Shown here piece after piece: positions 1 through 62,959 of a DNA stretch of 64,000 nt. The position numbers and the translations under genes are program-made. The DNA is from Tubulanus polymorphus (Eukaryota; Animalia; Nemertea). The notes under the pieces are model-generated. The model had not been told where the DNA came from. It made no database searches and saw nothing but the letters and a program-made list of their open reading frames with translations. The stretch spans positions 13,486,485 through 13,550,484 of the forward strand of contig NC_134027.1 of the NCBI RefSeq assembly GCF_964204645.1, in the 5' to 3' direction. Every line of letters starts with the position of its first letter. Position 1 is the first letter of the stretch.

Positions 1-1008
1 TAATATTTATAATATAGAACCCGAAACATTAGAAGAAAAAGAATATTTTATCAAAGGATTTTTCATGGGTGATGGTTCAGCAGATGTGTATAATTATGTT
101 TGGGGTAATAAATATTGTTGGTATTTATGCAATCAAGACTTAAAATTATTAGAAGGAATTAAGAAATTCTGTGAAGAAGTTTATTCACATAAAACATTTA
201 GCATCATGGATGTTATGAAATCATCAGCAGTTTATAGAATACTTGTAAATAATCCTAAAGATTTTGCTATAAAATATAATGATGAATTCTATATTCATGC
301 AATAGTGAAAAGTAATACTTCAACAAAAGAAAAGATAGTTCCAGATTATGTATTAAATGCAAAAGATAATTTAAGAAAATGGTTCTTCATTGGATTCTAC
401 GCAGCAGATGGTGCTAAAAAATTTTAACTGAAAAAGATTTAACTGAAAAAGTTCAAGATTTATTTGAAATATATAACCCAACAGATTATGTTTATGATTT
501 ATCAACTGAAGATGGCACATTCAACTGTGGATTTCCATTAATTTGCTTCAATACGGATGCGTACATACTAAAAATCAAGACAAATGACATAACAAAAGAC
601 TTAAAAACATTAAAACATCATTTTGATTTTAGCAATTATCCCAAAGATCATGAACTATTTAGCAATGATAATAAAAAGATTCTGAAATGTTTAAAGATGA
701 ATTAGGGGGTGATGAAATTATTGAATTTGTTGGGATAAGAAGTAAAATGTACAGTTACAGAACAAAAGATCATGAAACTAAAAAGTTAAAAGGAATAACA
801 AAACATGTGGTTGATAAACATATAGAATTTCAAGATTATATAAAGTGTTTATATAACTCAATTGTAATGAAACATAAAATGAATTGTTTAAGATCAGAAA
901 ATCACGAGATGTACATTAATGAAGTTGAAAAAACTAGTTTGAATCCATTTGATGATAAAAAGGCATATTTTAGATGATGGTATAAAAACATTACCTTATG
1001 GTTATTAA
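1..1008 (+). pseudogene. Protein-primed family B DNA polymerase (pPolB), 3' part, with intein remnant (<1-552)
   Basis: FKDELGG..IEFVGIRSKMYSY..KKLKGI..SLNPFDDK C-terminus, nearly identical to 53091-53546. Intein LAGLIDADG-like blocks KGFFMGDGS and IGFYAADG, and C-terminal junction GFPLICFN/TDAY. Frameshifts near 425, 685 and 960. Confidence 0.92.
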
Positions 1009-2323
1009 AATGGATCAATATCATCAAACTCGAAATCACTATTGGTTTCTTCTTTTTCATTTAATTGTTCTTGTATAATTTGTTTAGGTTCTTCCATTTC
1101 ATTTTTCTCATTTAAATAAAGTTCTATCTTGTACCATATTTCATCTCGCTCTCTTTGTTTCTTTTTGTTCGTTAATTCATCAAATGGAATTATGATATCG
1201 ATGTTTAAATAATTTTACAATCTTATTTAAAAAGAATTCATAATTAATTGAATCTGTTATTCTATTATCCACATAATATCTTAATATTTGTTTGAATGTT
1301 TCTTTTATATTTTCCATATCTTTTTCTGTTAATTTAGGTTTTTTATAATAATCGTTAAATAATAAATATAAATACATTTTCTTTTCTTGTGTGTTAAATG
1401 ATATGTTAAATGATGTGTTGATGGAATAATTGTTTTTATCATATCTTTTTTAGTTATTTCACCATTTTTATTTTCTATTATTTTCATTTTTTCAAGCCAT
1501 TGCTTATATACTGGCGTATGATCTTCCATAGAAAATGTCTTAAATATTTCATTTTATATATTAATTATGATATTTTAATTTTGGTTCTATAAGAATATCT
1601 CTAGTTTTTTCATCACCCCATAAATTTTTTTGCTATCCACATTCATTACAAAATATCACAGGACCTTCTTGTCTTAAGTACTCATAAATACATTGTGAGC
1701 ATTTTTTTCTATCATAGCTTTGTAATTGATCTTCATTAAGCTCTTGGTATTTTCTTACGTTTTCTTTATGTTTTTATTGTTCTATTATGTAGATTTGAAT
1801 TACTTGTTGTAATAATCAATTTACAATATTTACAATAATATGTTTTTCTTGTTAATTCATTATATTGTTTTTCTAACTTTTCAACTGTTTCTTTATTATC
1901 TGGTAACGTTTTCTCATATTCTGTTTCAAATTCATTAGAAATTTTATCTATATGTTCTTTACGAAATTGATGATTCTCCCAAGCTTCTATATTTTCAGGA
2001 CTAAATTTCATTCGACAAGGCCCACAGAAATGATCTTTTATATTATCCTTATCATAGAATAAGAAAGGTCTTTTCCAAATCATTTCAGGTTCAACTTCAA
2101 CAGAATTACTATTACTTTCGTTACTATCAACATTAGCCGTTGCGCCATTAATTTTACACTTCTCTGAATGTTTTTTAACATAATTTCTTGAGAATAATTT
2201 ATTACATTTTTGGGCAGTTTATTTTAGGGTGTTTATAATTTTCATCACGATTTTCATATGTCGAGCCATATTACTTTTTCTTAGAACTTCACCACAAATT
2301 TCACATCCTATCTTCTCATTCAT
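1005..2323 (-). pseudogene. Multi-zinc-finger protein with C-terminal poxvirus A2/VLTF3-like late transcription factor domain (copy A)
   Basis: Frameshifted ORF pieces 1766-2083, 1329-1529 and 1180-1377, including KLTEKDMENIKETFKQI..DSINYEFFLNKI. Starts at TAAATG (2323). Collinear with 53543-54870. Confidence 0.72.
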
Positions 2324-2391: not shown

Positions 2392-3147
2392 ATGGTAGAA
2401 TTAAAAGAATATAGAATATCTTTTGATTCAAGAAAACTTACAAATTATAAATCTCATAATTTACTAGTACAATTAGATAGAGAATTTAAGAATTGTGTTG
2501 ATTTAAAATTAGTTAATATAAGTTTATGTAATTCTTTTCATAATATATCGAATAAAAGTCTAGAACATTTAATGTTTTCAATCTTTTACAAAAAAAGGAA
2601 TAAATGGTTTTTTATATATTTAAAACCAGGATTATATAATTTAGATACATTAGCGCAAGAAATTAATAACTCGAGCTAAATTAGGAAGTGATTCCGGATT
2701 TAACATTAATTAGATTTTCAAAAAGTTATAGTTCTAATAAAATAAAGATTAGGTTAGCTCATGATGAACAATTTGAATTTATAGTAAGAAAACCTTTAGC
2801 TAAACTGTTAGGAATTAACCCAAATATTGTTACAGTAAACGCAGAAGGTAGATCAAACTTTCACCTTACACACATTTCTATATTTATTGTAATTTAATTA
2901 ATCCTACAAAAACATTTGAAGCAACTAAAGATACAATTTGTAATTCTAGTATATTAAATATTTTACCATTAAAAATGTTAGACACTTTGGAACGCAAATA
3001 AATTATAATTTAGCTGAATGTGATTTTAAACCTTGTATTCCACATTTCAATAATTTCAAATTAGAAATAAGAAATCACAATGGATACTTAATTGATTTGA
3101 ATAACTTTCCTGTAATTTATGAATTAGTTGTAAGATGTAAAGAGTAA
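2392..3147 (+). pseudogene. Minor capsid protein (penton, Polinton PX-like)
   Basis: N-terminal LKLVNISLCNSFHNIS..LKPGLYNLDTL and C-terminal YIYCNLI..ILPL..GTQINY..KLEIRNHNGYLIDLNNFPVIYEL pattern, typical of single jelly-roll pentons. Frameshifted. Confidence 0.8.
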
Positions 3148-3163
3148 TTTTTTTGATATATAA

Positions 3164-3517
3164 ATGTATATAACCGTTGGACCGAGTATATGTTTTGGGT
3201 TTGATTTTAAACGTGAGAAAGAAATGAAATTTAACATTACTGATGTAATTATACATATCAAAAATATTGCAATTTCTAATGAAACAACATTTGAGTATGA
3301 AACAACAATAGATAAAGAAACTTTAAATGTAGAAAAGATTACTAATTTAATAAGAGAATCTTTAAGATTTTATGAATTAGATGAAGATTTTATCATCGAT
3401 GATATTAAAAAAATAATAATTGAAATATATACAAATGAAACTAGTAATGAAATAAATGTTGAATTAATCATAAATAAGTTAACTAAATATTTTGAAGATA
3501 GTAATTTTTTTGATTAA
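3164..3517 (+). CDS. Hypothetical acidic protein of the element
   Basis: Intact 117 aa ORF with a TAAATG start. Homolog at 61598-61940. Confidence 0.7.
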   Translation: MYITVGPSICFGFDFKREKEMKFNITDVIIHIKNIAISNETTFEYETTIDKETLNVEKITNLIRESLRFYELDEDFIIDDIKKIIIEIYTNETSNEINVELIINKLTKYFEDSNFFD

Positions 3518-3520
3518 TAA

Positions 3521-3772
3521 ATGAGTGATAATAAGTGGATAATAACTGGATTATATAATGGAGCATTACTATCAGTTGGATTTTATAATGGAGCATTACT
3601 ATCAGTTGGAACTGTTGGTTATTCAATGGTATTAAAAAAAGTTTATAAAATGGGAAGTGTTAATGTTGATAGATTTGATATCAATGATATTTTAAAATTA
3701 ACATTATCAGTTACTTTATCTAATTTAACTATTGATTATTTGGAAAAACAAAAATATATTCCTCCTATATAA
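3521..3772 (+). CDS. Small hydrophobic (membrane) protein
   Basis: 83 aa ORF with a TAAATG start. Has an in-frame 30 nt tandem duplication relative to the 73 aa homolog at 61946-62167. Confidence 0.72.
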   Translation: MSDNKWIITGLYNGALLSVGFYNGALLSVGTVGYSMVLKKVYKMGSVNVDRFDINDILKLTLSVTLSNLTIDYLEKQKYIPPI

Positions 3773-3796
3773 ATGCGTAATTATTTTACTAAATAA

Positions 3797-4218
3797 ATGG
3801 CTTCTGCAGTTATAACTATTATAGGATCGCTAATTGTTAACGCTTTAGCATTTACAGGTGGTGGATATTTATTTAAACATATTGATAAAAATGGATCATT
3901 AACAGAACAAAAAAGACATAACTTAGCATTAGAGAAATACAATAAAGCAGCAGAAGAATATAGAGAAAAGAGGCAAAACTATATGGATTATATAAACAAG
4001 GAATTATATGATCAGAAGATTTCACATAGAGATTTTCAATCAGTTGATGATGCAATGAGTTTATATAACGCGGTAACCAATAAAGAAAATTACATCTATA
4101 CAAACCTAAATTATCAGATTATTATACCCCAAGTAAAGAACAACAGAAATATGAAATAATATGGATTTTAGGTGAAACTGTTATTGTTATATTTGTGGCG
4201 TATAGTATTACTAATTAG
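3797..4218 (+). pseudogene. Membrane-associated protein (hydrophobic N-terminus, coiled coil, C-terminal TM after a frameshift)
   Basis: MASAVITIIGSLIVNALAFTGGGYLF..EQKRHNLALEK. An alternative frame ends YEIIWILGETVIVIFVAYSITN*. A homolog starts at 62192. Confidence 0.68.
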
Positions 4219-4237
4219 TAATTTTTTTGCTAAATAA

Positions 4238-4672
4238 ATGGATGATAAAGTTGATTATATTGATATTATTCCTCATGATATAAATAAAACTAAATTAAAA
4301 ATATATTTAGAAAAACAAATATTAGAATTTGAAAGTGATTTAAAAGTTAAAAAGAAAAAATATTTAAAAAGTAAAATTATATATTATTTTATTATTAGTG
4401 GTTCGGTTACAATTAGTTCTGTAATAACATTTCTAGCAATATTCAGTCCATTAACACCTTTAGCTATATCAATTGGTGTGTTAGGATTAAGTTCAAGTGT
4501 ATTAACCGGTATAAGTTCAAAATTAAATATAAAAAGTAATAAAGAAAAAATTAAAATTAATGTAAAAGAAATTAATAAATTGAAGAATACACTAGATTAT
4601 ATAATAAGTTTAAATGGTCATATAACAGTTGAAGAACAAGATAAATTATTAAAAGAATTAATAAATTATTAA
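4238..4672 (+). CDS. Two-transmembrane-helix protein
   Basis: Intact 144 aa ORF with a TAAATG start and two adjacent hydrophobic helices flanked by Lys-rich segments. Confidence 0.72.
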   Translation: MDDKVDYIDIIPHDINKTKLKIYLEKQILEFESDLKVKKKKYLKSKIIYYFIISGSVTISSVITFLAIFSPLTPLAISIGVLGLSSSVLTGISSKLNIKSNKEKIKINVKEINKLKNTLDYIISLNGHITVEEQDKLLKELINY

Positions 4673-4688
4673 TTTCTTAATTATATAA

Positions 4689-6038
4689 ATGGTAGATAGT
4701 TATCCAAAAGCTTTCCAATATAATAAATCAATTAAATATAATATTCCTGCAATAGATTTTAATAAAGATATTACATATAGAAATGAAGTTTTAAATTCAT
4801 TAATTGATTTATATATTTATGTTACTGAAACTAATTATTTTAATGTTAAGATGGAAAATATATTTCATGTGTATACAATTAATTTTAAAAATTTAAATGA
4901 GGCAAAACATTGGTTATTAAAATCTAATATGAAGTATTGGCAGAACCAATTAAATTTTGCTGTTTATTGTGCAACAACAGGATGTGGAATTAGTTGGAAT
5001 GATCATTTAAATAAACCAACTTTACCATTGATGTTATCACATTTTAGATTTCATACTTATTTTCAAATAAAATTGATATTAGATGAATTAGAATGTCCTT
5101 TACCAGGTTCAAAATATTTTAAAGAATTGAATAATAATATTAATTTTTCTAAGTTTTATAAAATATGTAATTAATTTAATATTAATTCAAATAAAGATTT
5201 TAGAGCAAAAATCGGAACAATGGGTGGATTAGGAATATTATATACTAAAGAATTTGGAAAAATAATGAAAAATTCAGATATAAGAACACTAAATTAGAAT
5301 GAATTACCAAAATATTATAATAATATACAACAACAAAATAATAATGGTTGGGTTTATTTCATTTTAGAAAATAGTGAAGGTTTTACTAAAGCTGGTATAC
5401 AAAGAATAAATCAATCAATTAGAACTTATTTAATTTGTATTTTAGGTGCGCAAGTTGAAACAAGATCACCAATAGTTGGAAATGATAACACTTCATTTGA
5501 TGCGCAGAAACAATTCAAAGTATTATTTGAAGATTCCATTCATAATGATAAAAATAGATCGATTCCAGAAAACATTGTAAGATATCAAAATTATTTAGAT
5601 AAATCACATATTAGATTAAATTATTGTATAGGCCCTAATCTATTTATTATTTCTAATGATTTAGTATTAAAGATGGGAAATATAATTGGTTATTATAATC
5701 TAATTAAAACTGCAACAATAAATAATTCATTTGGATTGAATGATATAAATAAAAAGATTATTACTGCTCCAAAATTAATGGAAGGTGAAAAAAATAAAAA
5801 ACATATTCAATCAACAGAAACTAAAACTAATAATATTAAATTAAATAATGATTCTAAACCGGATTATAATACATCAGAAAATGGTGCCGTACGGCACCCA
5901 CACGGTGATATAAAAACTGATAATATTCAACATGAAATAATTAAACTAAATGATGATAATAAATCCCATGAAAATGCTAAATTAGCTATAACTTGTATAG
6001 GAATTGTAATAGGAGGGATATTATATTTTAAATTTTAA
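4689..6038 (+). pseudogene. Hypothetical element protein with C-terminal TM anchor
   Basis: ORFs 4689-5174 and 5673-6038 are joined by coding-like sequence with in-frame stops. WQNQLNFAVYCATTGCG motif. Ends LAITCIGIVIGGILYFKF. Confidence 0.65.
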
Positions 6039-6054
6039 TTTTTCTATTATATAA

Positions 6055-7378
6055 ATGGCAAAAGTAGATATTCCATTGGATCCTTTAGATGACGCTCCTG
6101 GTATAAGAGATGAACAACCACCTGATTTTGATGACACAAGTTTTAATGACGATAATGAAACAGCATATAATTCTAATTTATCAAGACCTGATACTAATGG
6201 ATTTGTTAGTAAAGCACGTTCAAGATTGGACATAGAAAATGAAAATCCAGGTTTATCAAAAAAAGAATTAGAATATGAAGGATTAACTGATAAATTTAAA
6301 CCAATATTTAAAAAAATCTGGTTTCAATATAACTAGTAAAGGTATGAATTATTTAGTAAAAGATTTGAAATATTTGAATGGTGATTATTATTGGCATTTG
6401 AAAGGTGACTATTATTTTAAGATTTCTTCTAATAAAAGTCTCGATAAAATAATAACAAGACCAACTTTAATTAAATTAGAACAATCTAGAATTGAGAAAA
6501 ATCATTAATGATGTTATAACTGATGTTACAGAACAAGATATAACTTTAAATAGAATAGAATTTAAACGAAGAAATGATGATTTTTTGAAGATAATTAATG
6601 AAAATTTAGAACCAGAAACAATTACTAAAGAAGTTAATAATTCCAAAACTAGTAAACTTAAATCAACCGAAGTTCAAACTGAAAAACTTTTACAAAATGG
6701 GTTACTTGATGCAACAGATCAAGAATTAGAAGATTTAAATATATTTTCTGATGAAGCAATTAGAGAAATTTTTAGTATACGAAAGGAAGCTGATAAAATT
6801 TCTGAGATAAAATTAGAACGAGATAAAAAAATTCTGTTTTTAGAAGATAAATTAACTGATAAAAATAAAGAAATAGAACAATTAAAGTCTGATATAGATC
6901 AAGTAATTGATGAAATAGAATATAGGCAAAAAGAATTACGTTTAGAAAAAGAAAAAGATGATTTAGAATATAACATAGAATTACAAAAGAAGAAATTAAA
7001 TTGTTATTAAAATCATATGATTATAATATTAATAGATTAAAAGTTATTTTCAAAGATTTGTTGATAAAACCAAATTCTAAAATATCATTAAAAGATAGAA
7101 TAAAATTATTATTTAAATTAGAAGGAATAACAATTCTTTCAATTCTAACAGCTGTAACTATGTTATTTACAACAATTGGTTTAGCAATATCAAATGCTTT
7201 AAAATCTGCACCAAATCCTAATAAACCGGATAAACCCCCGAATGATAATAATTCTATACAAGATAAAGTTAAAGATGGTTTAAAGAAATTAGCAAAATAT
7301 TTATGGGAACTATCTAAAAAATCTGCTGCAGCATTACCCCGAGTTATTACATTTATATTATATCTGACGCACAATTAA
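6055..7378 (+). pseudogene. Long coiled-coil protein with TM segment; 3' end appears truncated
   Basis: Three consecutive frameshifted ORFs (6055-6336, 6492-7010, 7001-7378) with a heptad-rich middle and hydrophobic GITILSILTAVTMLFTTIGLAI. Confidence 0.62.
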
Positions 7379-7446
7379 ATATTGTAAATTCACAATTAGA
7401 TAGTATTCAATATTAGAAATATAAAGTTAAAATTAACGATATATAA

Positions 7447-8557
7447 ATGGGCGGTAAAAAAACTTCTAATACTAAAGAACAATATTTAAGAAATTTATAT
7501 TACAACCCTGAGAGTTCGGTTGCTTATTCTTCTACCAAAAATATATGGCGTCAAGTAAAACAAGATAAATTAGATAAGATAATCCCACAACATTTAGTTA
7601 AATATAAAGATATAAATGAATTTATGTTAGAACAACCAACATATACAACACATAAAAAAATTATTAGAAAATATAAAACTCGTAAAACTATGGTAAGTTA
7701 TGTAGATCAACAATGGCAAGGAGATTTAATTGATATGAAAAATGTTAAGAAAGATAATGATGATTATTGGTGGTTATTGAATATAATTGATATTTTTAGT
7801 CGTTATGTATGGAGCTTCCCACTTTATAGAAAAGATGCTGTACAAACATCAAATGTTTTAAGAAAATTTCTTTCGGATGATAAACTAAAACCAGAAAAAA
7901 TACAATTTGATGATGGAAAAGAATTTGATAATTCACTTGTTCATGAACTCTAATAATCATAATATTAAATACTTTTCAACAAAATCGGATAAAAAAGCAG
8001 CAGTTGTTGAACGATTTAATAGAACATTAAGAACAAGAATGTGGAAATATTTTACCGCAAATAATACTTTTAAATGGATTGATGTTTTACCAAAATTGAC
8101 AGAAGGATATAATAATTCTTATCATTCTTCTATTGATGCTAGAAAACCTGAAAATGCTGAAATTGTTTGGAATAATTTATATGGAGCATTTCTTGTAGAT
8201 GATTTTGGTGAACCTAGATTTAAAGTTGGTCAAAATGTTAGAATTTCTAAGTATAAAAAGATATTTGACAAGGGATACGATCGAAATTTTACTAGGGAAA
8301 TATATAAAATAAAAAAGATAATAACAACAAAACCATATGTCTATAAATTAGAAGATTTAAATGGTGAAGAAGTTGATGGCTACTTTTACGAAGAAGAATT
8401 AAGTTTAACTACTGAAAATCTAGAACAAGAATATAAAATTGAAAAAGTATTAAAAACAAAAACTGTTAAAAGAAAAAAATATTCTTTAGTAAAATGGGTT
8501 GGATGGCCAGATAAATTCAATGAATGGATATTATCAAGTAAAATTAGAAATATATAA
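7447..8557 (+). pseudogene. Retroviral-type (rve) c-integrase with C-terminal chromodomain
   Basis: WQGDLIDM (D), KIQFDDGKEF (D), AVVERFNRTL (E), YNNSYHSSI, and chromodomain YKIEKVL..LVKWVGWPDKFNEWI. One frameshift near 7950. Confidence 0.95.
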
Positions 8558-9154
8558 ATGAATAAGGAATTATTTATATTTGAGCCTCATAATATGTTAA
8601 TTTCTGGTGTAACAAATTGTGGAAAAACTTATTTTATATTAAATTTATTAGAAACTGTTTATAAAAAACTATTTTGATAATATAGTATTATTTTGTCCAA
8701 CATATGAATTTAATCAAACTTATGATAGAAATATTACTAGAAATGACAAATTTATTATATTAGATCCTAAAACAGCAAAAGAAAATTTAGATAATTGTAT
8801 TAAAATAGCAATAGATATTTATAAAGGATCAAATACATTATTCATTATAGATGATTGTGCAAATTTACATGATTCAAAAATTAGAGGGAGTGAGTTATGT
8901 TAGATAGACATTTTGGGATAACAACTTGGGTTTTAAATCAAAAATATAATTCAATTGTTAAAGATTCTAGAGAAAACATTAGATTTTTAGTTTTATTCTA
9001 CAATAAAGATAGAAAATCGATGAAAAATGCACTTGAGGAAAATGATATTATTCCACATGATTTACATAATGAATATATGGATAAATTGAAAAATAATAAA
9101 AGATCAAAATTACTATTTAGATAACAACACCCATTTAAATATGAATGTATTTAA
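8558..9154 (+). pseudogene. A32/FtsK-like DNA packaging ATPase
   Basis: Hand translation from ATG 8558 gives MLISGVTNCGKT (Walker A), LFIIDDC (Walker B) and RHFGITTWVLNQKY..REN. Frameshifts present. Confidence 0.9.
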
Positions 9155-10888: not shown

Positions 10889-11513
10889 TCACTGTATATG
10901 TGTATCACAGAGCAATCGTCCGTTCTCACTAGCGCCTAGCTGTGATGAGAGGTGTCTCATACTCGGTTGAATTGAGTTATGATATTTTGAATTAAGATGG
11001 TGGGATTTATTGCTTCGAGTATAATATTTTCCACAATCACATAACACTTTTTCATTAGGTTCATATTTAGGCGTAACAATTTCATTATCTAAGTTACATT
11101 GAACTGCAACATCTTTGAATGATTTTTCATTATCTAATTCACATTGAATACCAATATTTGATGAATTTTCATTATAGATAATTTGTTTATCATCAAAATA
11201 ATCTATTCCTAAAACATAATTACTCAAATTTTGATGGTGTTTTTGTGATTCGAGATGTCTTTTATAATTCCTTTTTGTTATAAATTCATTACAAACTTCA
11301 CATTTTATTTCATCCACATTCATATTTTCTAATCGTTCTTTTCTTTCATTGGAATTTTCTGAAGTTATAAAATCTATAACATTTTTTATATGATTTGAAG
11401 ATTTTTTAATGATGAGATTTATTAGATTTATCGATGTATTTTTTACAATATGGGCGATAATATTGATTTTTATTAACATTATTGTTTTCTGGCTGGTGTT
11501 CATTCTCCCCCAT
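10889..11513 (-). pseudogene. Short zinc-finger protein sharing its N-terminus with pPolB
   Basis: Starts MGENEHQPENNN at TAAATG (11513). The first ~110 codons match 49086-49414, then it diverges to CDCGKYYTRSNKSHH. Confidence 0.7.
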
Positions 11514-11594
11514 TTATAAGGAAACAAAATTACTTGTGGTGATGAGAGCTAGTACTCTCGTACTCTGGTATGAAAGCCTACTTTCCCTATTACT
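11185..11594 (-). repeat. Right terminal inverted repeat (~410 bp) of copy A
   Basis: The reverse complement aligns by eye with 49009-49414, the left end of copy B. Confidence 0.8.
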
Positions 11595-41615: not shown

Positions 41616-41649
41616 AGAATAATAGAATTGAAATAAAAAATATTAAAAA

Positions 41650-44050: not shown

Positions 44051-44056
44051 AATAAG

Positions 44057-44605: not shown

Positions 44606-44629
44606 TACATTAAGTTAAGTTTGTTATAG

Positions 44630-48223: not shown

Positions 48224-48344
48224 TTATTTAAGAAAGAAATTAGAAAAATTAATAAATATTTGCTAGTTTTTAATTAAATATTTTATAATCACTTTTTAAA
48301 TATTAAACTTTTAAATGATTAAATCAAATAACAATTAAATTTAC

Positions 48345-49008
48345 AGCCAAACAATTTAATATTTCAACAGTCTCACAATTTAACATTTCAACAGTCAAAC
48401 AATTTATCATTTTAACAGTCGAACAATTTAACATTTTAACAGTCTAACAATTTAACAGTTTAACAATTTAACATTTCAACAGTCAAACAATTTATCATTT
48501 TAACAGACGAACAATTAAACATTTTAACAGTCTAACAATTTATCATTTTAACAGTCGAACATTTTAACAGTCTATTAATTTAACATTTTAACAGTCTAAC
48601 AATTTAACATTTCGACAGTCTAACAATTCAACATTTCAACAGTCAAACAATTTATCATTTCAACTGTCAAACAATTTATCATTTCAACTGTCAAACAATT
48701 TAACATTTCAAATGTCAAACAATTTATCATTTTAACAGTCTAACAATTTAACATTTCAACTGTCAAACAATTTATCATTTAAACAGACTAACAATTTAAT
48801 ATTTCAACTGTCAAACAATTTATCATTTCAACAGTCTAACAATTTAACATTTTAACAGTTTAACAATTTAACATTTTAACGGTCTAACAATTAAACATTT
48901 CAACTGTCAAACAATTTATCATTTTAACAGTCTAACAATTTATCATTTAACAGTCTAACAATTTATCATTTTAACAGTCTAACAATTTATCATTTAACAG
49001 TCTAACAA
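48345..49008. repeat. Minisatellite, ~24 bp unit AACAATTTA(A/T)CATTT(T/C)AAC(A/T)GTC(T/A), ~27 copies
   Basis: Directly visible tandem array abutting the left terminus of copy B. Confidence 0.95.
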
Positions 49009-49085
49009 AGTAATTGGAAGATGTGGGTTTCAGATCAGAGGACGAGACACCACTCATCACCACAAGTAATTTTTTTTCCTAATAA

Positions 49086-52000
49086 ATGGGGGAGAATGAA
49101 CACCAGCCAGAAAACAATAATGTTAATAAAAATCAATATTATTGCAAATATTGTAAAAAAATACGTCGATATATCTAATAAAACACGACATGAAAAAACT
49201 GCAAATCATATAAAACATGTAATAGATTTTGAAACTCCAGAAAATTCCAATGAAAGAAAAGAAAGATTAGAAAATATGAATGTGGATGAAATAAAATGTG
49301 AAGTTTGTAATGAATTTATAGTAAAAAGGAATTATAATAGACATCTCGAATCACAAAAACACCATCAAAATTTGAGTAATAATGTTTTAGGAAAAGATTA
49401 TTTTGACGATAAACCTCAAAAAGTAAAAAAACCAACTTCAAAAACTAAATCCATTTCAAATAAACCTTACATGGAAAATGTTAGAAATTATATTGATTCA
49501 CTAGAAATAAAAGATACAATTGAAATTTTAGAAACATTACATAGTAAAATTGGTCCTGCAGCTATTATATTTAGATTTTTTAAAGGTACAACAATAGAAG
49601 ATTATAGTACATTTAATGAAATAATAGAAAAAATACTAGATTTGATAACAGATGTTGAATATCCAAAAATTAGTATCTCTGGGAAAGTAAGTTTTATAAA
49701 TTCAGAAGAAAAAATGAATTATAATATTCAAACACACTCTGAAGAAATAATTTCAAAAACACAAATAAAAGAGAAGTTAGAAAAAATATTTAATAAATTT
49801 AAACGTCATATTGAAGAAAGATATTTTGAGGGTTCTGGCTTAACATTGAATGAAATTATATATTTAGATTTAAATGTTTATAATACAAAAAGAAATAAAA
49901 CATCAAAAAGTAATAAAATGTTTAAAAATTATTCAAACTTTACAACAGAAAAGGATATTAAAGCATCATCTTATATTAAATTACCATTTACAACAAAAGC
50001 AGTAATAAATATTCAAAATGAAGATAATAAATGTTTTCTATGGTCAATTATTAGTTGCTTACATCCAACACAGGAAAATGTTTGTAGAATAACAGATTAT
50101 CGGAAATATGAAACATTATATAAAATTGATCAATATCCAGTAACTATAAAAATGATTTCTAAAATAGAAAAAGTTAATAATTTAAAAATAGATGTATTCG
50201 AATTAATGCAATTACCAAAGACAAAAGGTGAAAATATTAAAGATTATACATTGGAAGTTTTATATTTAACAGAATATTATGATGATGAAAATGCTATAGA
50301 TTTGTTATATTACAAAAAAGATGAAAATGAACATTATATGTGGTTAAAACAAATTGATTTATTCTTTAGAACAGAAAGTGATCATCATCGTAAAATTTAT
50401 CTATGTAGAAAATGTTTATCTAAATTTATGACTGAGAATACATTATTAAAACATAAAGAATTATGTGATTTTAAAGATTTTTGTAAATTAATAATGCCAA
50501 CAGAAAAAGATTATAAATTGAAATTAACTAATCATAAATTTAAGAATATTGTTCCATTTGAAATTTATGGAGATTTTGAATCGTTGAATAAAGAATTAAC
50601 TGATCAAGATAGAAAAGAAATATATAACAAAAAGCAATTATTAAAATCAATGGATAAAGGAAATGAATTAAATTAAGACACAATACAAGACCCACCAATT
50701 ATAAATACAATTAAAAAAGTTCATCAAAGAGCTGCTGCTTATGGAATTTATATAAAATCAAATTATCCTGAATTATATGAAAGTCAATATATTTCTTTTA
50801 GAGGTGAAGATGTATTTAATAATTTTTGTAACAAAATGATTGAATTAGAAAGTGATTTTGCAAAATTATTAAACAAAAATAAAAGAATAGTTATGACAAA
50901 AGAAGATAAAATTGATTTTAATTATGCAACTCACTGTTGTTATTGTGAAAAACGTTTTTATTCATTTGATAAAAAAGTTAGAGATCATGATCATTTAAAT
51001 TCAAAATATCGTGGAGCTGCTCATGAAGATTGTAATTTACAAGCTAAAAAAGTAAATTTCGTTCCAATATTATTTCATAAATTATCAGGCTAGGATACCC
51101 ATCTATTTATAAAACAATTATCAAGGAAATTGGGCACAATTAATCAAGAAATAGAAGAATATAATGCTATGAATGGTGTAAATGTAAGAAAATATGATTT
51201 TAAACTATTAGCTAAAACATCTGAAAATTATATTTCATTTCAATTTGGTTGCATTAGATTTTTAGATTCTTATAGATTTCTAGCAAGTTCATTAGATATA
51301 GATGCAATGATGCAACCTCAACCATATAAACATTTTATATTAACAGAAGTTGAAAATGATGATAAAACTGATTGGGAAAGCGCAATTGCGAGTTTAAAAG
51401 ATGAAGCACCAATTGGTTATTTCTTTGTAGTTGATTTAGAATATCCTGAAAATATAAAGTTTAAAACAAGAAATTTACCTTATTGCCCAGAACATTTAAC
51501 CGTAGATGATAGTTATTTAAGTGAATACCAGAAGAAAATAAAACCGAAAGATCATGTTTTTACAGAAAAATTAATACTTACTCAAAATAATAAATACAAT
51601 TATATTGTTCATTATAGAATGTTAAAATTTTATCTAAAACAAGGAATGAAATTAAAGATAGTACATAGATATATTGAATTTAATCAATCGAAGTGGTTAG
51701 AAAAATATATAGATTTCAATACTCAACAGAGAACCATATCAAAAACAGATTTTGAAAAAGATTTCTTCAAATTAATGAACAATAGTTCTTATGGTAAAAC
51801 ATGTGAAAATATTAGAAATAGAAATGATATTGAATTAGTAAATAATTCTGAAAGATTAAGACATTTACAATCAAGTCCTAGACATTTAGGAAATAAAAGA
51901 TTTGAAGATTATTTAACAGCAGTTAAATTAAAAAGAACGTCAATGAAATTTAATAAACCTATATTCATCAAAATTATTAATATAAGTATCAAAATTATTA

Positions 52001-53546
52001 ATGTATGATTTTTATTATAATGTTTTACAACCACTTTTTGGGGAAAAGCATATTGAAATATTATATTTTGATTCTGTAACAGCTGACACCCCAATATTAT
52101 TAAAATGTAATGATAGAATATTGATAAGAAGAATTTCAGAAATAATTCCAAAACAAAATGAATGTTATATTTCATATGGTGAAAAAGAATTAATACAAAT
52201 AAATGGATTAATGGATGTTTGGACAAGAAATGGATGGAAAAAATTAAAGAATATTATTAGGCATAAAACAAATAAGAAAATCTATAGAGTTAGAACTAAA
52301 TTAGGGTTTGTTGATGTTACAGAAGACCATAGTTTAATTAAACGAAATGGTGATGAAATAAAACCAACTGATATAAAAATTGGAGATGAATTATTACATA
52401 AAAGATTTTTCCAAAGAATGAATCATATATCATTTGATGAAATTATTGATAATATTTATAATATAGAACCCGAAACATTAGAAGAAAAAGAATATTTTAT
52501 CAAAGAATTTTTCATGGGAGATGGTTCAGCAGGTGTGTATAATTATGTTAATCGCACTCAATATTGCTGGTATTTATGCAATCAAGATTTGAAATTATTA
52601 GAAAGAATAAAGAAATTCTGTGAAGAAGTTTATTCACATAAAACATAGGAATAATCCTAAAGATTTTGCTATAAAATATAATGACGAATTCTATATTCAT
52701 GCAATAGTGAAAAGTAATACTTCAACTAAAGAAAAGATAGTTCCAGATTATGTATTAAATGCAAGAAATAATTTAAGAAAATGGTTCTTCATTGGATTCT
52801 ACGCAGCAGATGGTACTAAAAGTTTCAAAAACCGCAAAACAATATCTTTAGCTCAAAAAGGAAAAGTTGCTATATCAGGATTAAATATATTATGCAATTC
52901 ATTAGGTTTTAATATGAATATTGGATTGATTAAATCTAAACCAAATTGCTTTAATTTAAGCCATGTAGAAAATGAGTTAACAGAAGGAGTTAAAGATTTA
53001 TTTGAAATATATAACCCAACAGATTATGTTTATGATTTATCAACTGAAGATGGTACATTTAACTGTGGATTTCCATTAATAGCAGTCAATACTGACGCGT
53101 ACATACTAAAAATCAAAACAAATGACATAACAAAAGACTTAAAAACATTAAAACATCATTTTGATTTTAGCAATTATCCCAAAGATCATGAACTATTTAG
53201 CAATGATAATAAAAAGATTCCTGGTAAATTTAAAGATGAATTAGGGGGTGATGAAATGATTGAATTTGTTGGGATAAGAAGTAAAATGTATAGTTATAGA
53301 ACAAAAGACCATGAAGCTAAAAAATTAAAAGGAATAACAAAACATGTGGTTGATAAACATATAGAATTTCAAGATTATATAAAGTGTTTATATAACTCAA
53401 TTGTAATGAAACATAAAATGAATTCTTTAAGATCAGAAGATCACGAGATGTACATTAATGAAGTTGAAAAAACTAGTTTGAATCCATTTGATGATAAAAG
53501 GCATATTTTAGATGATGGTATAAAAACATTACCTTATGGCCATTAA
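49086..53546 (+). pseudogene. Protein-primed family B DNA polymerase with zinc fingers, endonuclease VII-like insert and intein
   Basis: SYIKLP..NIQNEDNKCFLW, Exo I YGDFES, RDHDH..YRGAAH..CN, Exo II FHKLSG*D, motif B KLMNNSSYGK, motif C split as YFD/TDA. Has stops, frameshifts and a deletion removing motif A near 51297. Confidence 0.95.
52073..53090 (+). mobile_element. Intein (HINT domain plus LAGLIDADG homing endonuclease) in PolB motif C
   Basis: Block A SVTADTPIL, block B VTEDHSL, block C FFMGDGS, block E GFYAADG, block F YVYDLST, C-terminal Asn followed by +1 Thr. Confidence 0.93.
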
Positions 53547-54870
53547 AACATAAAATCAATATCATCATACTCGAAATCACTATTGGCTTCTTCATTTTCA
53601 TTTAATTGTTCTTGTATAATTTGTTTAGGTTCTTCCATTTCATTTTTCTCATTTAAATAAAGTTCTATCTTGTACCACATTTCATCTCGCTCTCTTTGTT
53701 TCTTTTTGTTCGTTAATTCGTCAAATGGAATTATAATATCGATGTTCAAATAATTTACAATCTTATTTAAAAAGAATTCATAATTAATTGAATCTGTTAT
53801 TCTATTTTCCAAATGATACATTAATATTTGTTTAAATATTTTTTTTATATTTTCCATATCTTCTTCTGTTAATTTTGGTTTTTCATAATAATCGTTAAAT
53901 AATAAATATAAATACATTTTCTTTGGTTTTGTGTTAAATGTTAATGGAATAATTGTTTTTATAATATCCTTTTTAGTTATTTCACCATTTTTATTTTCTA
54001 TTATTTTCATTTTTTAAGCCATTGCTTATATTCTGGTGTATGATCTTCTATAGAAAATATTTTAAAAATTTCATCAAGATAATTTAATTTTGGTTCTATG
54101 AGAAAATCTCTAGTTTTGTCTTCACCCCATAAATTCTTTTGCCATCCACATTCATTACAAAATAACACAGTACCTTCTTGTCTTAAGGTCGCATAACTAC
54201 ATTGTGGGCATTTTTGTTTATAATTTATTGGTAATAGATCTTCATTAAGCTCTTGGTATTTTCTTACGTTTTCTTTATGTTTTATTGTTCTATTATGTAG
54301 ATTTGAATTACTTGTTGTAATAATCAATTTACAATATTTACAATAATATGTTTTTCTTGTTAATTCATTACATTGTTTTTCTAACTTTTCAACTGTTTCT
54401 TTATTATCTGGTAACGTTTTCTCATATTTTATTTTTTCTAATAAACTATTTTTTCTTTCATTGAATTCTGCTTCAAATTTATTAGAAATTTTATCTATAT
54501 GTGCTTTACGAAATTGATGATACTCCCAATCTTCTATATTTTCAGGGCTATATTTTATTCGACAAGGCTCACAGAAATGATATTTTATATTATCCTTATC
54601 ATAGAATAAGAAAGGTCTTTTCCAAATAATTTCAGGTTCAACTTCAACAGAATTACTATTACTTTCATTACTATCAACATTAGCCGTTGCGCCATTAATT
54701 TTACACTTCTCTGAATGTTTTTTAACGTAATTTCTTGAGAATTATTTATTTCATTTTGGGCAGTTTATTTTAGGGGGTTTATAATTTTCATCATGTTTTT
54801 TCATATGTCGAGCCATATTACTTTTTCTTAGAAGTTCATCACAAATTTCACATCCTATCTTCTCATCCAT
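53543..54870 (-). pseudogene. Multi-zinc-finger protein with poxvirus A2/VLTF3-like domain (copy B)
   Basis: Zinc ribbon CPQC..EG..FCNECG, then FLIEPKLNYL and IKKIFKQI..INYEFFLNKI..DEMW. Frameshift at ~54010. Confidence 0.75.
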
Positions 54871-55884
54871 TTATTTAGGAAAAATTGTATTAAAATTAAT
54901 TTTTAGTGATGAGCGGTAATTTTTTTATGTTATAAATAATGGTAGAATTAAACGAATACAGAATATTTGTTGATTCTAGAAAACTTACAAATTATAAATC
55001 ACATAATTTAATAGTTCAATTAGATAGAGAATTTAAGAATTGTGTTGATTTAAAATTAGTATATATAAGTTTATGTGACTCATTTTACAATATATCGGAT
55101 AGCATTTAATTTTTTCAATCTTTTACAAAAAAAGGAATAAATGGTTTTTTATATATTTAAAACCAGGATTATATAATTTAGATACATTAGCACAAGAAAT
55201 TAATAGAAAAGCTCGAGCTAAATTAGGAAGTGATTCCGGATTTAGTATAAGAATTTTAAAAAGTGATAGTTCCAATAAAATAAAGATTAGGTTAGCTAAT
55301 GACGAACAATTTAAATTTACAGTAAGAAAACCTTTAGGTAAACCATGGACTCTAAAACGAAGGGACGTGAAACGAAAAACGCCGCCTTTGATCTCCCCTG
55401 TAGCATCCGAGCTACGGCTCTCTGCAGTTCGTCATTCGCGTGGCAACACCTGTCAGTGTGGTTAATTGCAGTTTTGTTGCGCGCGCAGCTAAAACAGCGA
55501 CCCATATGGACGAAAACACTTCCATAGTAATCTACACGCTGTGAATTATCAGCAGCTAGGGCGCCATTGAAATGGTTGTTAAGGGGATAGAATCTCAGTG
55601 CAATCATGGACTCTAAAACACCTGCATTAATTGAATATTGTTAATAAAATCAATCTACTTTACTTAATTACAACACATGTCTCAATATATGACACGGCCT
55701 CATCATCTGATTTTATTTCAACAGCAATAATTAGTAGGTCAATAATTAGTGTACTACACGCATAACTTATTTTAACTAGGGGTCAGTCACCTATATTTAT
55801 GAACAATGTCTAAGTAAGCATATAAGCAAACATATATAGCGTATACTAGTCAGAAGTAATTTTACACCTGGTTACAACGGACTT

Positions 55885-57350
55885 ATGATGGAAAACAACC
55901 CGACCAAACGACGACTGAATAATGACATTTTTGATTTGGATAAGGAAATACGCTGGGATAATTTGATAAGCGATGATGAATTGCTAGCTGAATGCCCTGT
56001 GTTGATGGAATCTTTTTTTAAATGTCCTTTTTGTGGCAAGACGTTTAAAAGTTCATCAGGATTTACCGGGCACATTAAAAAACAGCACGACGCAAACCCC
56101 AAGGAATATGCTGGTAATTATATATTCTAAACTCTATTGTATTTACTGATAACATATATGAAAAGTTCCTTATTCTTAAACTTCACATTTCATATTTCAG
56201 CATCTAAGCATAAAATGAATCAGGTTTTAAAGGAGAATGATCATGACCATTCATCAATTTCTTCGAGTACGTAGCATTTTCTGCCTGGTGAAATGAAATT
56301 ATCGATACGTATATGCATCTATACCGCTCTTTCAATTATTATCTTTCAGAGCCATACCTGGATGAGAATGAATTCTTGAAATCGTTCGAAAAAACTGTGT
56401 GCGACGCATTAAGAGAAGTGAAGAGCGATCCGATAATAATGACGTCTCCTTTTGGCGGTATCTTTGAAAAATTGATCGAAGAATCGCACAATGCGCAAAA
56501 AACAACCGAATTGTGCAATGTTTTAGCACCTCGAGTCGAAAAGTGCATACGTGCAGGAGAAACCAGCAAATTTCCCAGTATCAGTCGGGAATTGATTTGG
56601 AATCAATTCCATAATCTGAGGACGGATGAACTTCTAATCGATGAACTGTGTTCCACATTTTCGCGTGACAAAATGAGAAAAGCACAAGTTCGCATGCTTG
56701 TAAGCTGCTGGTTGTCACAAGTGTTTAAACTGTCAGTGATTTGGCATTTCAGCAGCGATACTGAAAATTCAGTCGAGGGGGACGAGTGCGATTTAACGAA
56801 ATCTGAGGAGGGTGTCTTGCGTTTCATCGCTGGTTATATATGTCGAAAATTGACAGATCGTTTTCAAAGGAGTAATTCACCAGTTTCGGCGATCTACCTG
56901 GAAGTATTGGGAGAAATATCCCAGAAAAGCGAATCGTTTGAAAAAGAGGACCTTTTCCTTGAACACACCGAGACGTGGCTAACATTAGTCAACCGTGGGG
57001 GATTGACGTTCGTGACCGATGCGTTTTATTTAATGATATTGAGTATCGAGAAATTAGTAAGGAAAGACTACAATCGCCATGAAGCAGACTCTAATCTAAA
57101 TGCTCGTGTGAGAAAACGTATTATAGAAGACCGGCCGGTACATGTGTACCTAGATGAAATAACGAAAAAACTATCTGACGAGGAGAAGCAGGGTTTCCTC
57201 TCCGTAGTTGTGAACCTGTATCTCAACATCCGCAGTCATGCATATGCCAAAGGAATTGTTGATTTCCACGAACAAAGAACTTCAACGACAAGCAAAGGCC
57301 AGAAAGGACTGAGAAAATCTTTAAAGGATTGCACCAACAGGTATATATAA
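55885..57350 (+). CDS. Accessory gene of the P element: C2H2 finger plus P-transposase C-terminal-like domain; exons 55885-56113, 56201-56266, 56350-57350
   Basis: Phase-compatible GT/AG junctions give an open ~431 aa frame containing CPFCGKTF..HIKKQH, LRFIAGYICRKL and VNRGGL. Confidence 0.8.
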
Positions 57351-57474
57351 TCTTATAGGACATTTCTTTATTATAAACATCAATTCTATATTTACAAACT
57401 AATACATACAAAAACAAGAAAATACATTTTCATGAATGGATAATATGACAGTAACATTTTCAATATTCTAATTC

Positions 57475-60242
57475 TCAATGATGGCGTTTCTTTTTTGGAA
57501 GTGGAGTATTGTCGTTTACATATTGCACCTGATAATCAGCAGTTACATTTCCTCTAATAGGCGCCAATGCGTGTGATTTTAATGTACATATTGCACTGGA
57601 ATTATAACAAAATTGATATACATTCGGATTATCATTTCCACCCCCCCCCCCCCCCCCCACTGTCTCTGTTTCCCAAAGAACTGCTCAAGTGGGTCCTGAT
57701 TAAATTTTTCTGATAACACGAAAGTTGCCCCATGTTGTAATAAGTATGTACAGCACTCAATGAATGATTTAATTGTGATCTCAATACCATCAAGAGTTTG
57801 ATAAGAAAGAATCATTCGTGCTTTATCGGATTTCTGAATATTTACATGTGTTTCATCAATTTCAGCCTTCCAACGCTTTAAATCATCCAAGAACCATTGG
57901 AGCCAGGTAAGCCGATCATCGTCAACATCAGTATATGCATTAAGATCTTTATTCAGTGACCTTTCACCTTGTCTGAGGTGACGCACATTAAGACAATCAA
58001 AGAACTTGTTTATATTTCTAATAAATACGACCGTTTCTGAAGTCTCATCTCCCTGAGTTAATTGCAGGGCATTTGCAACTGACGAGCTAAGAATTTGAGC
58101 AGCTAATTTTACCCGCATTTTTGAAAATGATGTTAGGTAGACATGCGCACGAGTCAACTTGGGTACAAGTTTTAAATGGTTTCTGGCTTCATAATTCTGA
58201 AGCTCAACAATCTGTTTCCATGAAATGTGTTTCCCCCTTCGCCACATATAACGTGTATTGCTGTTTGCACCAGAGCTATAAAAACAGTTTCTGACAGTTT
58301 TAATGAGATGAGGGGCATCCGATATAAAGTACAAATCTCTGTCAGTAGCGAAAGGGTTTTTTGTTTTATACACAACGCCTTCAAAACCTTCAATTCGATG
58401 CATATTAAAAAATCGTCTATTCGATGATGCCCCATCACATGTGAGGGAAAGGACTTTCATACCATACAGTTCTAAATACATAATTGTATCCCATACCAAA
58501 GGATAAAGAAAATCCGCTGTAATGCCATTGCAAGGAAAGCTTGCAATTGGATATGAAATATTATTCGTAAGTCCCCTGACCATGAAAGTTAACATATAAG
58601 TTGCTAAGGGAGGCTTTGATGTGCCTTCTGCCATATTGCGTTCATAGTTAATAATACAATTGGAAACATCATCCAAATTCGTATACCCAATAAGCTCACC
58701 AGATGCTTTATCATACACTAAATCAGCTTTTATTTTAACTTCATCGTGCAGCAAACCTACATAACGAACATGTTCTAAATATGAATTTTCATTTTCAGAT
58801 TCCTTCAGCAATTCAACAAATGACTCTACTTGAAAACCAGACTGTGGTTTAAATGAATGCGTATAGTCTATCAACGTTCGCGAAGATGGTAAACTTATGA
58901 AACCGGAACGACGCATTGCTTCATATGATCCGGATGATTTTCCTCGAAGATACAGGCACCACTTTATTATCAGAGGGTGCCATCGGATTGATTTCTTGCT
59001 GGACGTCTGTGCGCACTTCAATTGCTGGTCCCAGAATACTCTCGAAAATGTACCTTCAGCAAATGCCGAGTTATTTGGATGAGTCATTTCTTCGTTGTGA
59101 TGTTCCATAATCGATTGAAAATCATCAGAACTTAATTGATCGAGTTTAGTTCCCTCTCGGTCAATTCTCTTTTGAATTTGAATTTCCAATCTTTTAATTT
59201 TTAGTTGGAGTCTATCAATTTCGCGCTTCATTATTCTTAGTTTACTATCTTTTTCATTTGCCGATAAATTTGAATATGTACAGTGTGACGACAAGCCAAT
59301 TTTTTGGGTAGAGTCACTATTCTGCAATTTTGACATTCTGGCACGCAACCTAACACGAAATTTGCTGCAGTTACTGCACCGGGCGCTGAATCGGTCAATA
59401 AGTAGATCGCAATTAGAAGAACGAATTGTTGATGTGTACCGGTTTCCAAAACATGTTTGTCCATAGTCTCCTTCTCTGATTGCAGAAATAGTCTCTGAAC
59501 CTTTCTCGGTTATTCCGGATCCTACCGCTATCAGACTATTGAATTTTTCATCACTGTTGCCGCTGCATATAAGATATGATTCTACAATTTTTGGTAAATG
59601 TAGAATTTTCGCTTTAATCAATGTCTTTGAAAGAAATTTCAAGTTCGAATAATTTTTGTATAAATAATGTTCAGAATCTAGAACTTGATTGTGCACCTTA
59701 ATTGTTATTTCATATTCGTTCGTAATTTGAATCCAAATCGATACAACTGGACCACTATCCGTGTCAGTTAATTTGACCAGCGTTAACCCAACATCATTTA
59801 ACGTATGAACTTTCCATGAATCCAACGCTAGCTTCGATTCCGAAATTTCCTTCAGTATTTCATTTCTACTGGCATTTTGTATCTGTAAAAACAAATTAGA
59901 TCAAAATCATTATGTAAAATATCGTGAAATCCGAAGATATATTCCTCCAAAAATTTGTTCTGATGTTAATAAACTTAATAAAAATCATATCTTACCGTCG
60001 ATGAATCGTCTGTTTCATGGTTTAATGAAATTTCTGGTTCGATTACATCTTCACATACCTGTTGAAATGGCAAAAAAGATTTGATTTACTGACAAGAAAT
60101 AAACTACATGTATATATAGACTGATGTGAGTGCATTTTATATGCTGAGGATATCTTACCTCACTCTGTTCTTGCTGGGGTTGGCCAGGATCTGCAGGACG
60201 TTTTCGAATCCTGCCTATTCTCTTACGTCTCGGCTTTTTCAT
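57475..60242 (-). CDS. P-element transposase; exons 60242-60159, 60058-59996, 59882-57475, with one frameshift in a G18 run
   Basis: LPSSRTL, LLHDEVKIK (D), TCDGASSN (D), DAPHLIKTVRN, KMRVKLAAQ, NQDPLEQFFG (E). Phase-0 introns. Confidence 0.92.
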
Positions 60243-61945
60243 ACCTAAAAAAAATTGTTACATTGAAAAAATTTATCTTCCCAACAAATAAACACTTGGC
60301 CTGGATGTGGGATATGGCCTAGATACACACTGCTGCATTATCATTCGGTGTGATCATAACACTGGCAATGCGGAAGTAAACAGACCCGTATCTATGGAAC
60401 AAGATCTCAATCTCTGTAGGCCTATACACAATAGTGACGTCACATCGAGTTCCGGAGTAATAATTACGTTAGTATTTCAATAAAAAGAATACTTTTCAAA
60501 TCAGAATTATAGACCAGATAAATGATCATCTTCAATACAAATGTAATCAAGCCAGAAATTAAACTTTCGTTGTTTCGATATTGTTTTCATAATGAATTAA
60601 TATTCTACGGATGTTGAATAACTTGGTTTACAAATTTTATTATTTTCATATCATTTATTTAATTTGGTCGAGAAAATGAAAGGAAGACTGGGCAAAATAT
60701 TGATATACCAACAAATCTATCGAACCGATTAAAATATAAAGTATATCAAGCCATACGGTTGGGATTCATAAATAACAATTTGGCAATTCGATTAATATCT
60801 GAAATTTACCCTCTAACAGAATTGGTTTACTAAATGAACATATCGCGAAGTCTTGGTTCGAACTCGCGGAAATCATTGAGGATAATTTGATTGCAATCAA
60901 CAGCTTGCGTGTTTCGAATATGTGTTAAATTCAGACGACCCCGATAAAAATAGAATTTACCTTATCGATCTTAAGTATCTCTAGAGTGTAATCCTTTTTA
61001 TAAAATGGGAGTTAAACACACACGAATCGACAAATCTGAAGATTTATGTCACGTACAAAATCACGCCGCTAAACACTGCAGTCAAATATGGCGGTTCTCC
61101 TTGCTCAGAGCTGTTCGGCTATAATCGGAAACACTCGGTTTCCGATTACAGCGTAGCTACGATCCAACGCGCGTCGACAGCTGGCCCTTTGATCTTTAGC
61201 TGCGTTTCACGTCCCTTCGTTTTAGAGTCCATGGGTAAACTGTTAGGAATTAACCCAGATATTGTTACAGCATACGCAGAAGGTAGATCAAACTTAATAC
61301 CTTTTACACACTTTTATATTTATTGCAATTTAATTGATCCTACAAAAACATTCGAAGCAACTAAAGATACAATTTGTAATTCTAGTATATTATTTTTGCC
61401 ATTAAAGAATGTCAAACAATTTGGAACGCAAATAAATTATAATTTAACTGAATGTGATTTTAAACCTTGTATTCCTCAATTTAATAATTTTAAATTAGAA
61501 ATAAGAAATCATAATGGTTATTTAATTGATTTGAATAACTTTCATGTGATATATGAATTAGTTATAAGATGTAGAGAGTAATTTTTTCACTATATAAATG
61601 AATATAACTGTTGGACCGAGTATATGTTTTGGGTTTGATTTTAAACGTGAGAAAGAAATGAAATTTAATATTAATGATGTAATTACACATATTAAAAATA
61701 TTGCATTTTCTAATGAAACAACATTTGAGTATGAAACAACGATAGATAAAGAAACATAAAAATGTAGTAAAGATTACTAATTTAATTAGAGAATCTTTAA
61801 GATTTTATGAATTAGATGAAGATTTTATCATAGATGATATTAAAAACATATTAACCAAAATAAAAGTAGTAATGAAATAAATGTTGAATTAATCATAAAT
61901 AAGTTAACTAAATATTTTGAAGATAGTAATTTTTTTGATAAATAA

Positions 61946-62790: not shown

Positions 62791-62959
62791 ATTACCTTAT
62801 GGTTATTAAAACATAAAATCAATATCATCGAACTCGAAATCACTATTGGCTTCTTCATTTTCATTTAATTGTTTAGGTTCTTCTTCCATTTCATTTTTCT
62901 CATTTAAATAAAGTTCTATCTTGTTCCACATTTCATCTCGCTCTCTTTGTTTCTTTTTT
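62791..62959 (+). repeat. Third fragment of the PolB/VLTF3-like gene junction
   Basis: Matches 990-1166 and 53528-53707 with a small deletion. Confidence 0.85.

Follow-up and report, generated by a model that had tools for sequence, protein, structure and literature searches.

Polintons or Mavericks (Polintoviricetes), among them the Beta adintoviruses (PMC8502044) and the polintoviruses of stony corals (PMC11131425), are multi-copy elements of animal genomes with terminal inverted repeats (TIRs) starting with AG, a protein-primed family B DNA polymerase (PolB), an rve integrase, an A32 ATPase and, as an accessory, the late transcription factor VLTF3. VLTF3 has already been reported in the coral polintoviruses, in a paper that cites Krupovic and Koonin (2016) for a VLTF3-bearing subgroup (PMC11131425), and is listed in related elements (PMC8502044; 10.64898/2026.06.19.733378). 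In PgVV, Sputnik and mavirus, shared promoters are a mark of dependence on a helper (10.1101/2022.07.28.501842), and occlusion bodies of entomopoxviruses contain the polinton-like viruses AHEV_PLV1/2 and CBEV_PLV1 (PMC11296320). For the transcription and mobilisation of animal Polintons, the usual assumption is a nuclear and autonomous mode of life. Here we describe a 64,000-nucleotide stretch of the nemertean Tubulanus polymorphus (contig NC_134027.1, positions 13,486,485 to 13,550,484; hereafter the window), which holds decayed copies, A and B, of a multi-copy animal Polinton/Maverick. Because its genes start at a signal of poxvirus late type and it carries a VLTF3 of likely poxvirus lineage, we propose, with a probability of about 0.5, that a pox-like helper virus supplies the RNA polymerase that transcribes the element.

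The VLTF3-like gene is convergent with PolB, in copy B running from an ATG at 54870 to a stop at 53543-53545 beside the PolB end at 53546, where in-frame stops at 54751-54753 and 54742-54744 interrupt it, as does a frameshift near 54009-54016. The first-pass annotation of this DNA had described C2H2-like fingers, a zinc ribbon, FLIEPKLNYL and the block LTEEDMENIKKIFKQI..INYEFFLNKI..W in a gene placed in this way, all of which are present in the sequence, and had proposed a match to poxvirus A2/VLTF3. That match holds in both the Pfam and the structure checks: the 155-residue C-terminal piece scores narrowly above the PF04947 cut-off of 25 bits, and the predicted fold ranks VLTF3 proteins first. 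All 30 Atlas matches of the C-terminal piece fall within the VLTF3 family set, at weak recognition. The intact relatives P0001-P0003, taken as whole proteins, did not reach PF04947 at E 0.01; the Pfam scan gave no PF08792 match in the ribbon region; a word-based protein search with the C-terminal piece gave no match; and viral-contig searches with the VLTF3 piece and with the gene at 4689 returned no loci. One of the fingers matches zf-U1 (E 4.6e-7, 29.9 bits against a cut-off of 22). The structure predicted for an intact relative has a predicted local distance difference test score (pLDDT) of 88, and a control model made without poxvirus rows one of 84; for both models the top rows in BFVD are VLTF3-type viral proteins only, and the VLTF3 part of the product is predicted to comprise a zinc ribbon and a cyclin-like helical domain. 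No solved VLTF3 structure was found by sequence, and a Foldseek search with the model gave no match at E 0.001.

A HMMER search over 1.84 billion representatives returned three relatives only (E up to 0.001), none of them a named poxvirus or giant-virus protein. The three pieces in the window all align collinearly with P0001/P0004 and with P0002, so that the fingers, ribbon and VLTF3 domain belong to one protein. P0001 is encoded in an independent element, L208, whose PolB is 86% identical and whose VLTF3 gene, intact over 697 residues, is likewise convergent with PolB. These data confirm that the gene in the window is a VLTF3 homologue fused to four zinc fingers. A shorter relative, P0003 (281 residues), has no zinc-finger extension and is nearer in size to poxvirus A2. 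In a genomic run under the same species label, the gene is covered to a depth of 208-281, compared with about 5 for a host exon, a rough estimate of ~40-55 fold on that single baseline bin. Most reads disagree with the window sequence at two of the three breaks (204 of 298 and 215 of 236), and these two lesions are therefore private decay.

Several comparisons place the VLTF3 of the element nearer to poxviruses than to giant viruses. The window piece and two relatives score 26-34 bits against the poxvirus profile, compared with 11-20 and about 0 against giant-virus profiles. With the model of the intact relative, the best BFVD match is from Diachasmimorpha entomopoxvirus, with cowpox at rank three and Melanoplus entomopoxvirus at rank five, and with the control model made without poxvirus rows the same three rank first, second and fifth, the latter search giving TM-scores of 0.52-0.64 for poxvirus rows and at most 0.54 for others. 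A branch uniting the element with poxviruses has support of 99 in a tree of 26 of the 41 rows and of 97/93 in one of 19, the latter drawn without near-duplicates and without three long rows (L122, L125 and P0003); a separate, earlier tree held three groups only and cannot show affinity. The motif INYxFFLxKI of the window, sought over all IMG/VR, gave 117 loci with long in-frame open reading frames (ORFs) only in poxvirus A2 genes, a result for which the motif itself selects.

Weighing against a poxvirus origin, mean identity is ~19% to poxvirus and to giant-virus VLTF3 alike, and diagnostic columns are mixed (in the window piece 1 pox-like and 6 giant-like of 16, in the relatives 6-7 against 3-6 of 29). 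The fold searches place a protein of Moumouvirus at rank three or four, with E-value margins of about one order of magnitude; both trees were flagged for long branches meeting, and entomopoxvirus, asfarvirus, iridovirus and egovirus rows are missing from them. The poxvirus affinity suggested in the first-pass annotation is favoured by the profile scores, the trees and the ranks in the fold searches but falls short of proof, as approximately unbiased (AU) tests leave standing both a non-pox placement (p 0.25) and a shared origin with the VLTF3 of another Polinton, L226 (p 0.34). We consider it probable, at well above even odds, that the element VLTF3 is a deep branch on the poxvirus side.

Two further PolB-bearing elements have a VLTF3 of giant-virus type (L226:5447-6085 and L231:1990-3042), that of L231 being ~57% identical to one giant-virus group. 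These Polinton-borne, long-branched sequences fall outside the branch of the element and poxviruses, and because both are of giant-virus type, Polintons likely took VLTF3 several times. Gene transfer from an egovirus to a polinton has been reported (10.1101/2024.03.23.586382).

The TAAATG starts noted in the first-pass annotation are real. TAAATG stands at 16 of 18 gene starts of the element, compared with 61 of the 935 other ATGs that these stretches contain (p ~1e-16), and, without four starts picked with the motif as a guide, at 12 of 14 against 65 of 939 (p 3e-12). A run of T lies 7-13 bases ahead of TAAAT, with T at -10 in 12 of the 16 compared with 20 of 61 other TAAATG (p 0.004). In the vaccinia late promoter, TAAATG likewise overlies the start codon, with T at -10 among other Ts (PMC11980589), and slippage at such promoters creates 5' poly(A) leaders (PMC6211774). 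Among controls counted by the first ATG of ORFs, TAAATG occurs at 49 of 133 poxvirus starts, at 14 of 270 and 2 of 114 giant-virus starts, and at 28 of 313 in other Polinton-like loci. Gaps between genes are 0-24 bases in six of seven cases, and a TATA-like box touching the ATG, together with T at -3, is a poor fit to host RNA polymerase II (Pol II) and to scanning.

The signal is found across the family, including ahead of PolB and the integrase, and the nearest relatives (L208, L209 and L269) have TAAATG at all seven starts. L226, which has several genes in common with the element of the window and a giant-virus-type VLTF3, has it at 1 of 11 and uses TATA-repeat starts, a contrast in VLTF3 type and start motif that is drawn from two elements. 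An upstream box, CTCATCAC, is a candidate binding site with 7 matches against 1.05 expected, several of them mutual duplicates; it is absent upstream in L208 and L209.

VLTF3 itself is an accessory of one subfamily and is not the cause of the start signal. At 54938, 335 reads end loosely at a depth of ~600: around every second read at the start of the adjacent gene is preceded by other sequence, by which VLTF3 marks a subfamily; L209 and L269, both short contigs, carry the signal without VLTF3. In comparison with L208, the ratio of nonsynonymous to synonymous substitution (dN/dS) is 0.62 in VLTF3 and 0.13-0.16 in PolB. These observations count against the proposal. The signal is family-wide whereas only some members of the family have VLTF3, which makes the signal the better argument of the two.

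No RNA polymerase is visible in the element, as the first-pass annotation had noted: five element stretches, no other copies being seen whole, contain neither the RNA-polymerase catalytic motif nor a stop-free frame longer than 555 residues, and poxvirus RNA-polymerase subunit families have no match among the element ORFs scanned. The step from VLTF3 without RNA polymerase to a helper, which that annotation took, does not follow by itself, since mriyaviruses (PMC11253617) and ariadnaviruses (10.64898/2026.08.29.747986), both interpreted as nuclear, keep VLTF3 and have no RNA polymerase. Measured as a satellite, the element has no polymerase of its own and a start signal that matches the vaccinia late consensus; neither a helper virus nor an element transcript was observed. 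We regard dependence on a helper as an even matter. Under this proposal the integrated element would be silent in the germline until infection by a pox-like virus, whose late-stage polymerase would initiate inside TAAAT and add a non-templated 5' poly(A) leader, while the element VLTF3 might use its four extra zinc fingers to tether the helper polymerase to element DNA.

The same facts could describe an autonomous nuclear virus transcribed by host Pol II, with the fusion of zinc fingers and VLTF3 serving as its own late activator and, in the manner of TFIIB, as the adaptor through which Pol II starts at TAAAT. The mriyaviruses and ariadnaviruses offer a precedent, the element integrates and therefore reaches the nucleus, a helper poxvirus would already own a VLTF3, and core genes of coral polintoviruses are expressed in host transcriptomes, with no helper reported in that section (PMC11131425, section 9). 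Comparison of the modelled helical domain with solved structures gives a coherent set of weak cyclin-box matches (TFIIB, Brf, ORC6 and cyclins; Z 5-6.3, root-mean-square deviation 3-4), although these Z-scores lie under the tool threshold of 8. An activator specific to one subfamily also sits poorly with a signal that is family-wide, precedes PolB and the integrase, and fits the vaccinia late consensus in both TAAATG and T at -10, and we consider this account rather unlikely. A cytoplasmic polymerase from elsewhere than a poxvirus, either that of another invertebrate nucleocytovirus or that of an RNA-polymerase-encoding linear element like the yeast virus-like elements, which use a TAAAN initiator with slippage (PMC6211774), would agree with the equal identities to both kinds of VLTF3, the AU tests that reject neither alternative and the rank of the Moumouvirus protein. 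TAAATG starts are rare in the sampled giant viruses, however, and poxvirus rows lead in profile score, tree and TM-score, which makes such a source unlikely, and less probable than the nuclear account.

It is also conceivable that the signal is a mere by-product of AT-rich, tightly packed genes, in which a stop codon or a poly(A) signal abuts the following ATG, with VLTF3 as passive cargo. At one of seven junctions TAA is the upstream stop, the T-run often follows an upstream stop, and VLTF3 is under weaker constraint than PolB. Yet the signal also stands before PolB, VLTF3 and the right-end gene, divergent or terminal genes with no gene upstream. AT richness does not explain the motif, as AT-rich giant-virus loci show it at only 6 of 81 starts, and VLTF3 is intact over its full length in L208 with dN/dS below 1; we judge this account very unlikely. 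An origin of the motif from poly(A) signals was rejected, AATAAA occurring at only 4 of 12 gene ends within the checked stretch. 

Returning to transcription by a pox-like helper, a broader form of the proposal, which we advance tentatively and at somewhat less than even odds, is that a clade of animal germline Polintons represents endogenous poxvirus virophages, their whole genomes wired to poxvirus post-replicative promoters. One subfamily would have acquired, from an undescribed, deep-branching invertebrate poxvirus lineage, the VLTF3 now fused to zinc fingers, and would use it to direct the polymerase of the helper to its own DNA. The type of VLTF3 and the start signal would then form, in each Polinton, a readable record of its own helper group.

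The remaining parts of the element agree with its classification (Table 1): TIRs that begin with AG, a protein-primed PolB, an rve integrase and an A32-like ATPase are all found. The termini at 49009 and 11594 both start AGTAAT and have 411 bases in common at 89%, although they belong to two different copies, no copy lying in the window with both of its ends. A Pfam scan of the window PolB gave no PolB family match. Its intein is skipped exactly by 48 reads of other copies and is missing from L208, L209, L226 and L271, so it is polymorphic within the Polinton family in the animal genome; a Hint and LAGLIDADG intein is seen at 1-560 of the window too. The ATPase of L226 passes the PF04665 cut-off. 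Capsid evidence in the window copies is confined to a 22-codon remnant, the counterpart of which, L226:9118-10386, we take to be a capsid gene, and the block beginning at 54939 is presumably minor-capsid-like. No maturation protease was found with two queries in these deleted and broken copies, and the gene at 3164 had no Atlas match.

Table 1. Features of Polinton copies A and B and associated sequences, in window coordinates
Feature	Position	Strand	Remarks
VLTF3-like gene, copy B	53543..54870	-	four zinc fingers, zinc ribbon and helical VLTF3 domain; broken; collinear with intact P0001/P0002/P0004
Pfam PF04947 Pox_VLTF3 match	53657..53881	-	E 5.9e-6, 26.5 bits; profile 84-163, includes INYEFFLNKI
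CxxC..CxxC zinc ribbon	54145..54210	-	aligned to A2/VLTF3 N-terminal ribbon; four Cys nearly invariant in alignment
N-terminal extension	54256..54870	-	four C2H2/C2HC-like fingers, not in poxvirus A2; zf-U1 match
Poxvirus-late-like start signal of VLTF3	54868..54895	-	T-run, then TAAATG; common to 16/18 element genes
CTCATCAC box, candidate binding site	54906..54913	-	35-45 bases before VLTF3, PolB and right-end zinc-finger gene
CTCATCAC box positions	2359, 10690, 10942, 11539, 49053, 54906
VLTF3-like gene, copy A	1005..2323	-	~90% DNA identity to copy B; breaks at different places
Scrap of VLTF3 3' end	62791-62958		isolated, ~170 bases; third occurrence
Left TIR	49009..49414	+	begins AGTAAT; contains PolB start signal; read depth doubles here
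Protein-primed PolB, broken	49086..53546	+	motifs and 452 tblastn relatives
Intein (Hint and LAGLIDADG)	52073..53099	+	in YxD-TDS motif of PolB; missing from some copies
Start of gene block divergent from VLTF3	54939..55343	+	interrupted by insertion, resumes at 61236
Insertion splitting copy B, 5.9 kb	55344..61235	.	nearly intact P-element/THAP9-type transposase 57582-59900, minus
Block of small and medium genes, copy A	2392..7340	+	nearly all with TAAATG signal: 3164, 3521, 3797, 4238 (SLATT-like), 4689, 6055
Last 22 codons of probable major capsid gene	7348..7413	+	remainder deleted in copy A; 64% identity, E 0.006, to C-terminus of L226:9118-10386
rve integrase with chromodomain, broken	7447..8557	+	rve 36.1 bits, over cut-off
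A32-like packaging ATPase, broken	8558..9151	+	PF04665 E 0.002; tblastn E 4e-29 to L226 ATPase
Right TIR of copy A with zinc-finger gene start	11185..11594	-

The element is flanked by retrotransposon and P-type transposase genes, and an 800-base degenerate tandem array of an 8-base unit (48207-49008) directly adjoins copy B on the left. Probable non-autonomous derivatives of the element lie at 12665-12786, 14710, 15709 and 40356-40511, as short repeats, in part palindromic, that open with its terminal sequence; read depth is very high near 12.0-13.6 kb. An AT-rich fragment at 29395-30894 (minus strand) contains a broken gene of ~500 codons with a TAAATG start and no family match, whose motifs suggest a rolling-circle initiator. 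The stretch 40600-44630 is a fragment of a second, diverged Polinton family (integrase at 65% DNA identity, an endonuclease gene, the same start signal) with a 1.3-kb tandem duplication of two genes.

Among described systems, poxvirus A2/VLTF-3 (PF04947 and PF08792) has the same predicted fold, zinc ribbon, short linker, KLxHL/KLxYL helix, INYxFFLxKI block and final Trp as the product of the window gene, and is needed for late transcription with the viral RNA polymerase and the partners A1 and G8. The window gene differs in its ~19% identity, 220-residue zinc-finger extension and acidic tail, and has no A1, A2.5, A3 or D13 flanking it. Mriyaviruses and ariadnaviruses also combine a small genome with VLTF3 and no RNA polymerase, but they have Nucleocytoviricota capsids and VLTF2, encode neither a protein-primed PolB nor an integrase, and are interpreted as nuclear and autonomous. 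The virophages and PgVV Gezel-14T (mavirus with CroV, Sputnik with mimivirus, PgVV with PgV) resemble the element as integrating small double-stranded DNA viruses without RNA polymerase, and have promoters that match those of a larger virus, as may hold for the element; unlike it, they have protist hosts, Imitervirales helpers and an experimentally shown dependence, and a pox-type VLTF3 is not reported there.

For the coral polintoviruses, VLTF3 is given as a giant-virus-like gene, and its lineage, a zinc-finger fusion and a promoter analysis do not figure in the passages found (PMC11131425), whereas the factor in the window leans towards poxviruses and its genes share a poxvirus-late-type start; in the window copies the capsid gene is deleted and a protease was not seen. 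AHEV_PLV1/2 and CBEV_PLV1 are, like our element, small Polinton relatives proposed as poxvirus parasites, but they were physically found with a poxvirus and are without an rve integrase, whereas the element in the window shows the regulatory signature but no virus; the terms VLTF, promoter, transcription and TAAAT are absent from the text of that report in a term search (PMC11296320). VLTF is not mentioned in PMC3671162 or in 10.64898/2026.10.13.758929, and we found no report of a poxvirus-type promoter in Polintons in a search that excluded subscription journals and supplements, which could hold one. VLTF3 in Polintons is itself known; what is apparently new here is a pox-leaning VLTF3 together with a genome-wide start signal of poxvirus late type. 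If the proposal is true, the element bears the trace of a poxvirus lineage that has yet to be sequenced, and animals inherit poxvirus satellites, which may be compared with mavirus in protists and may have a defensive role.

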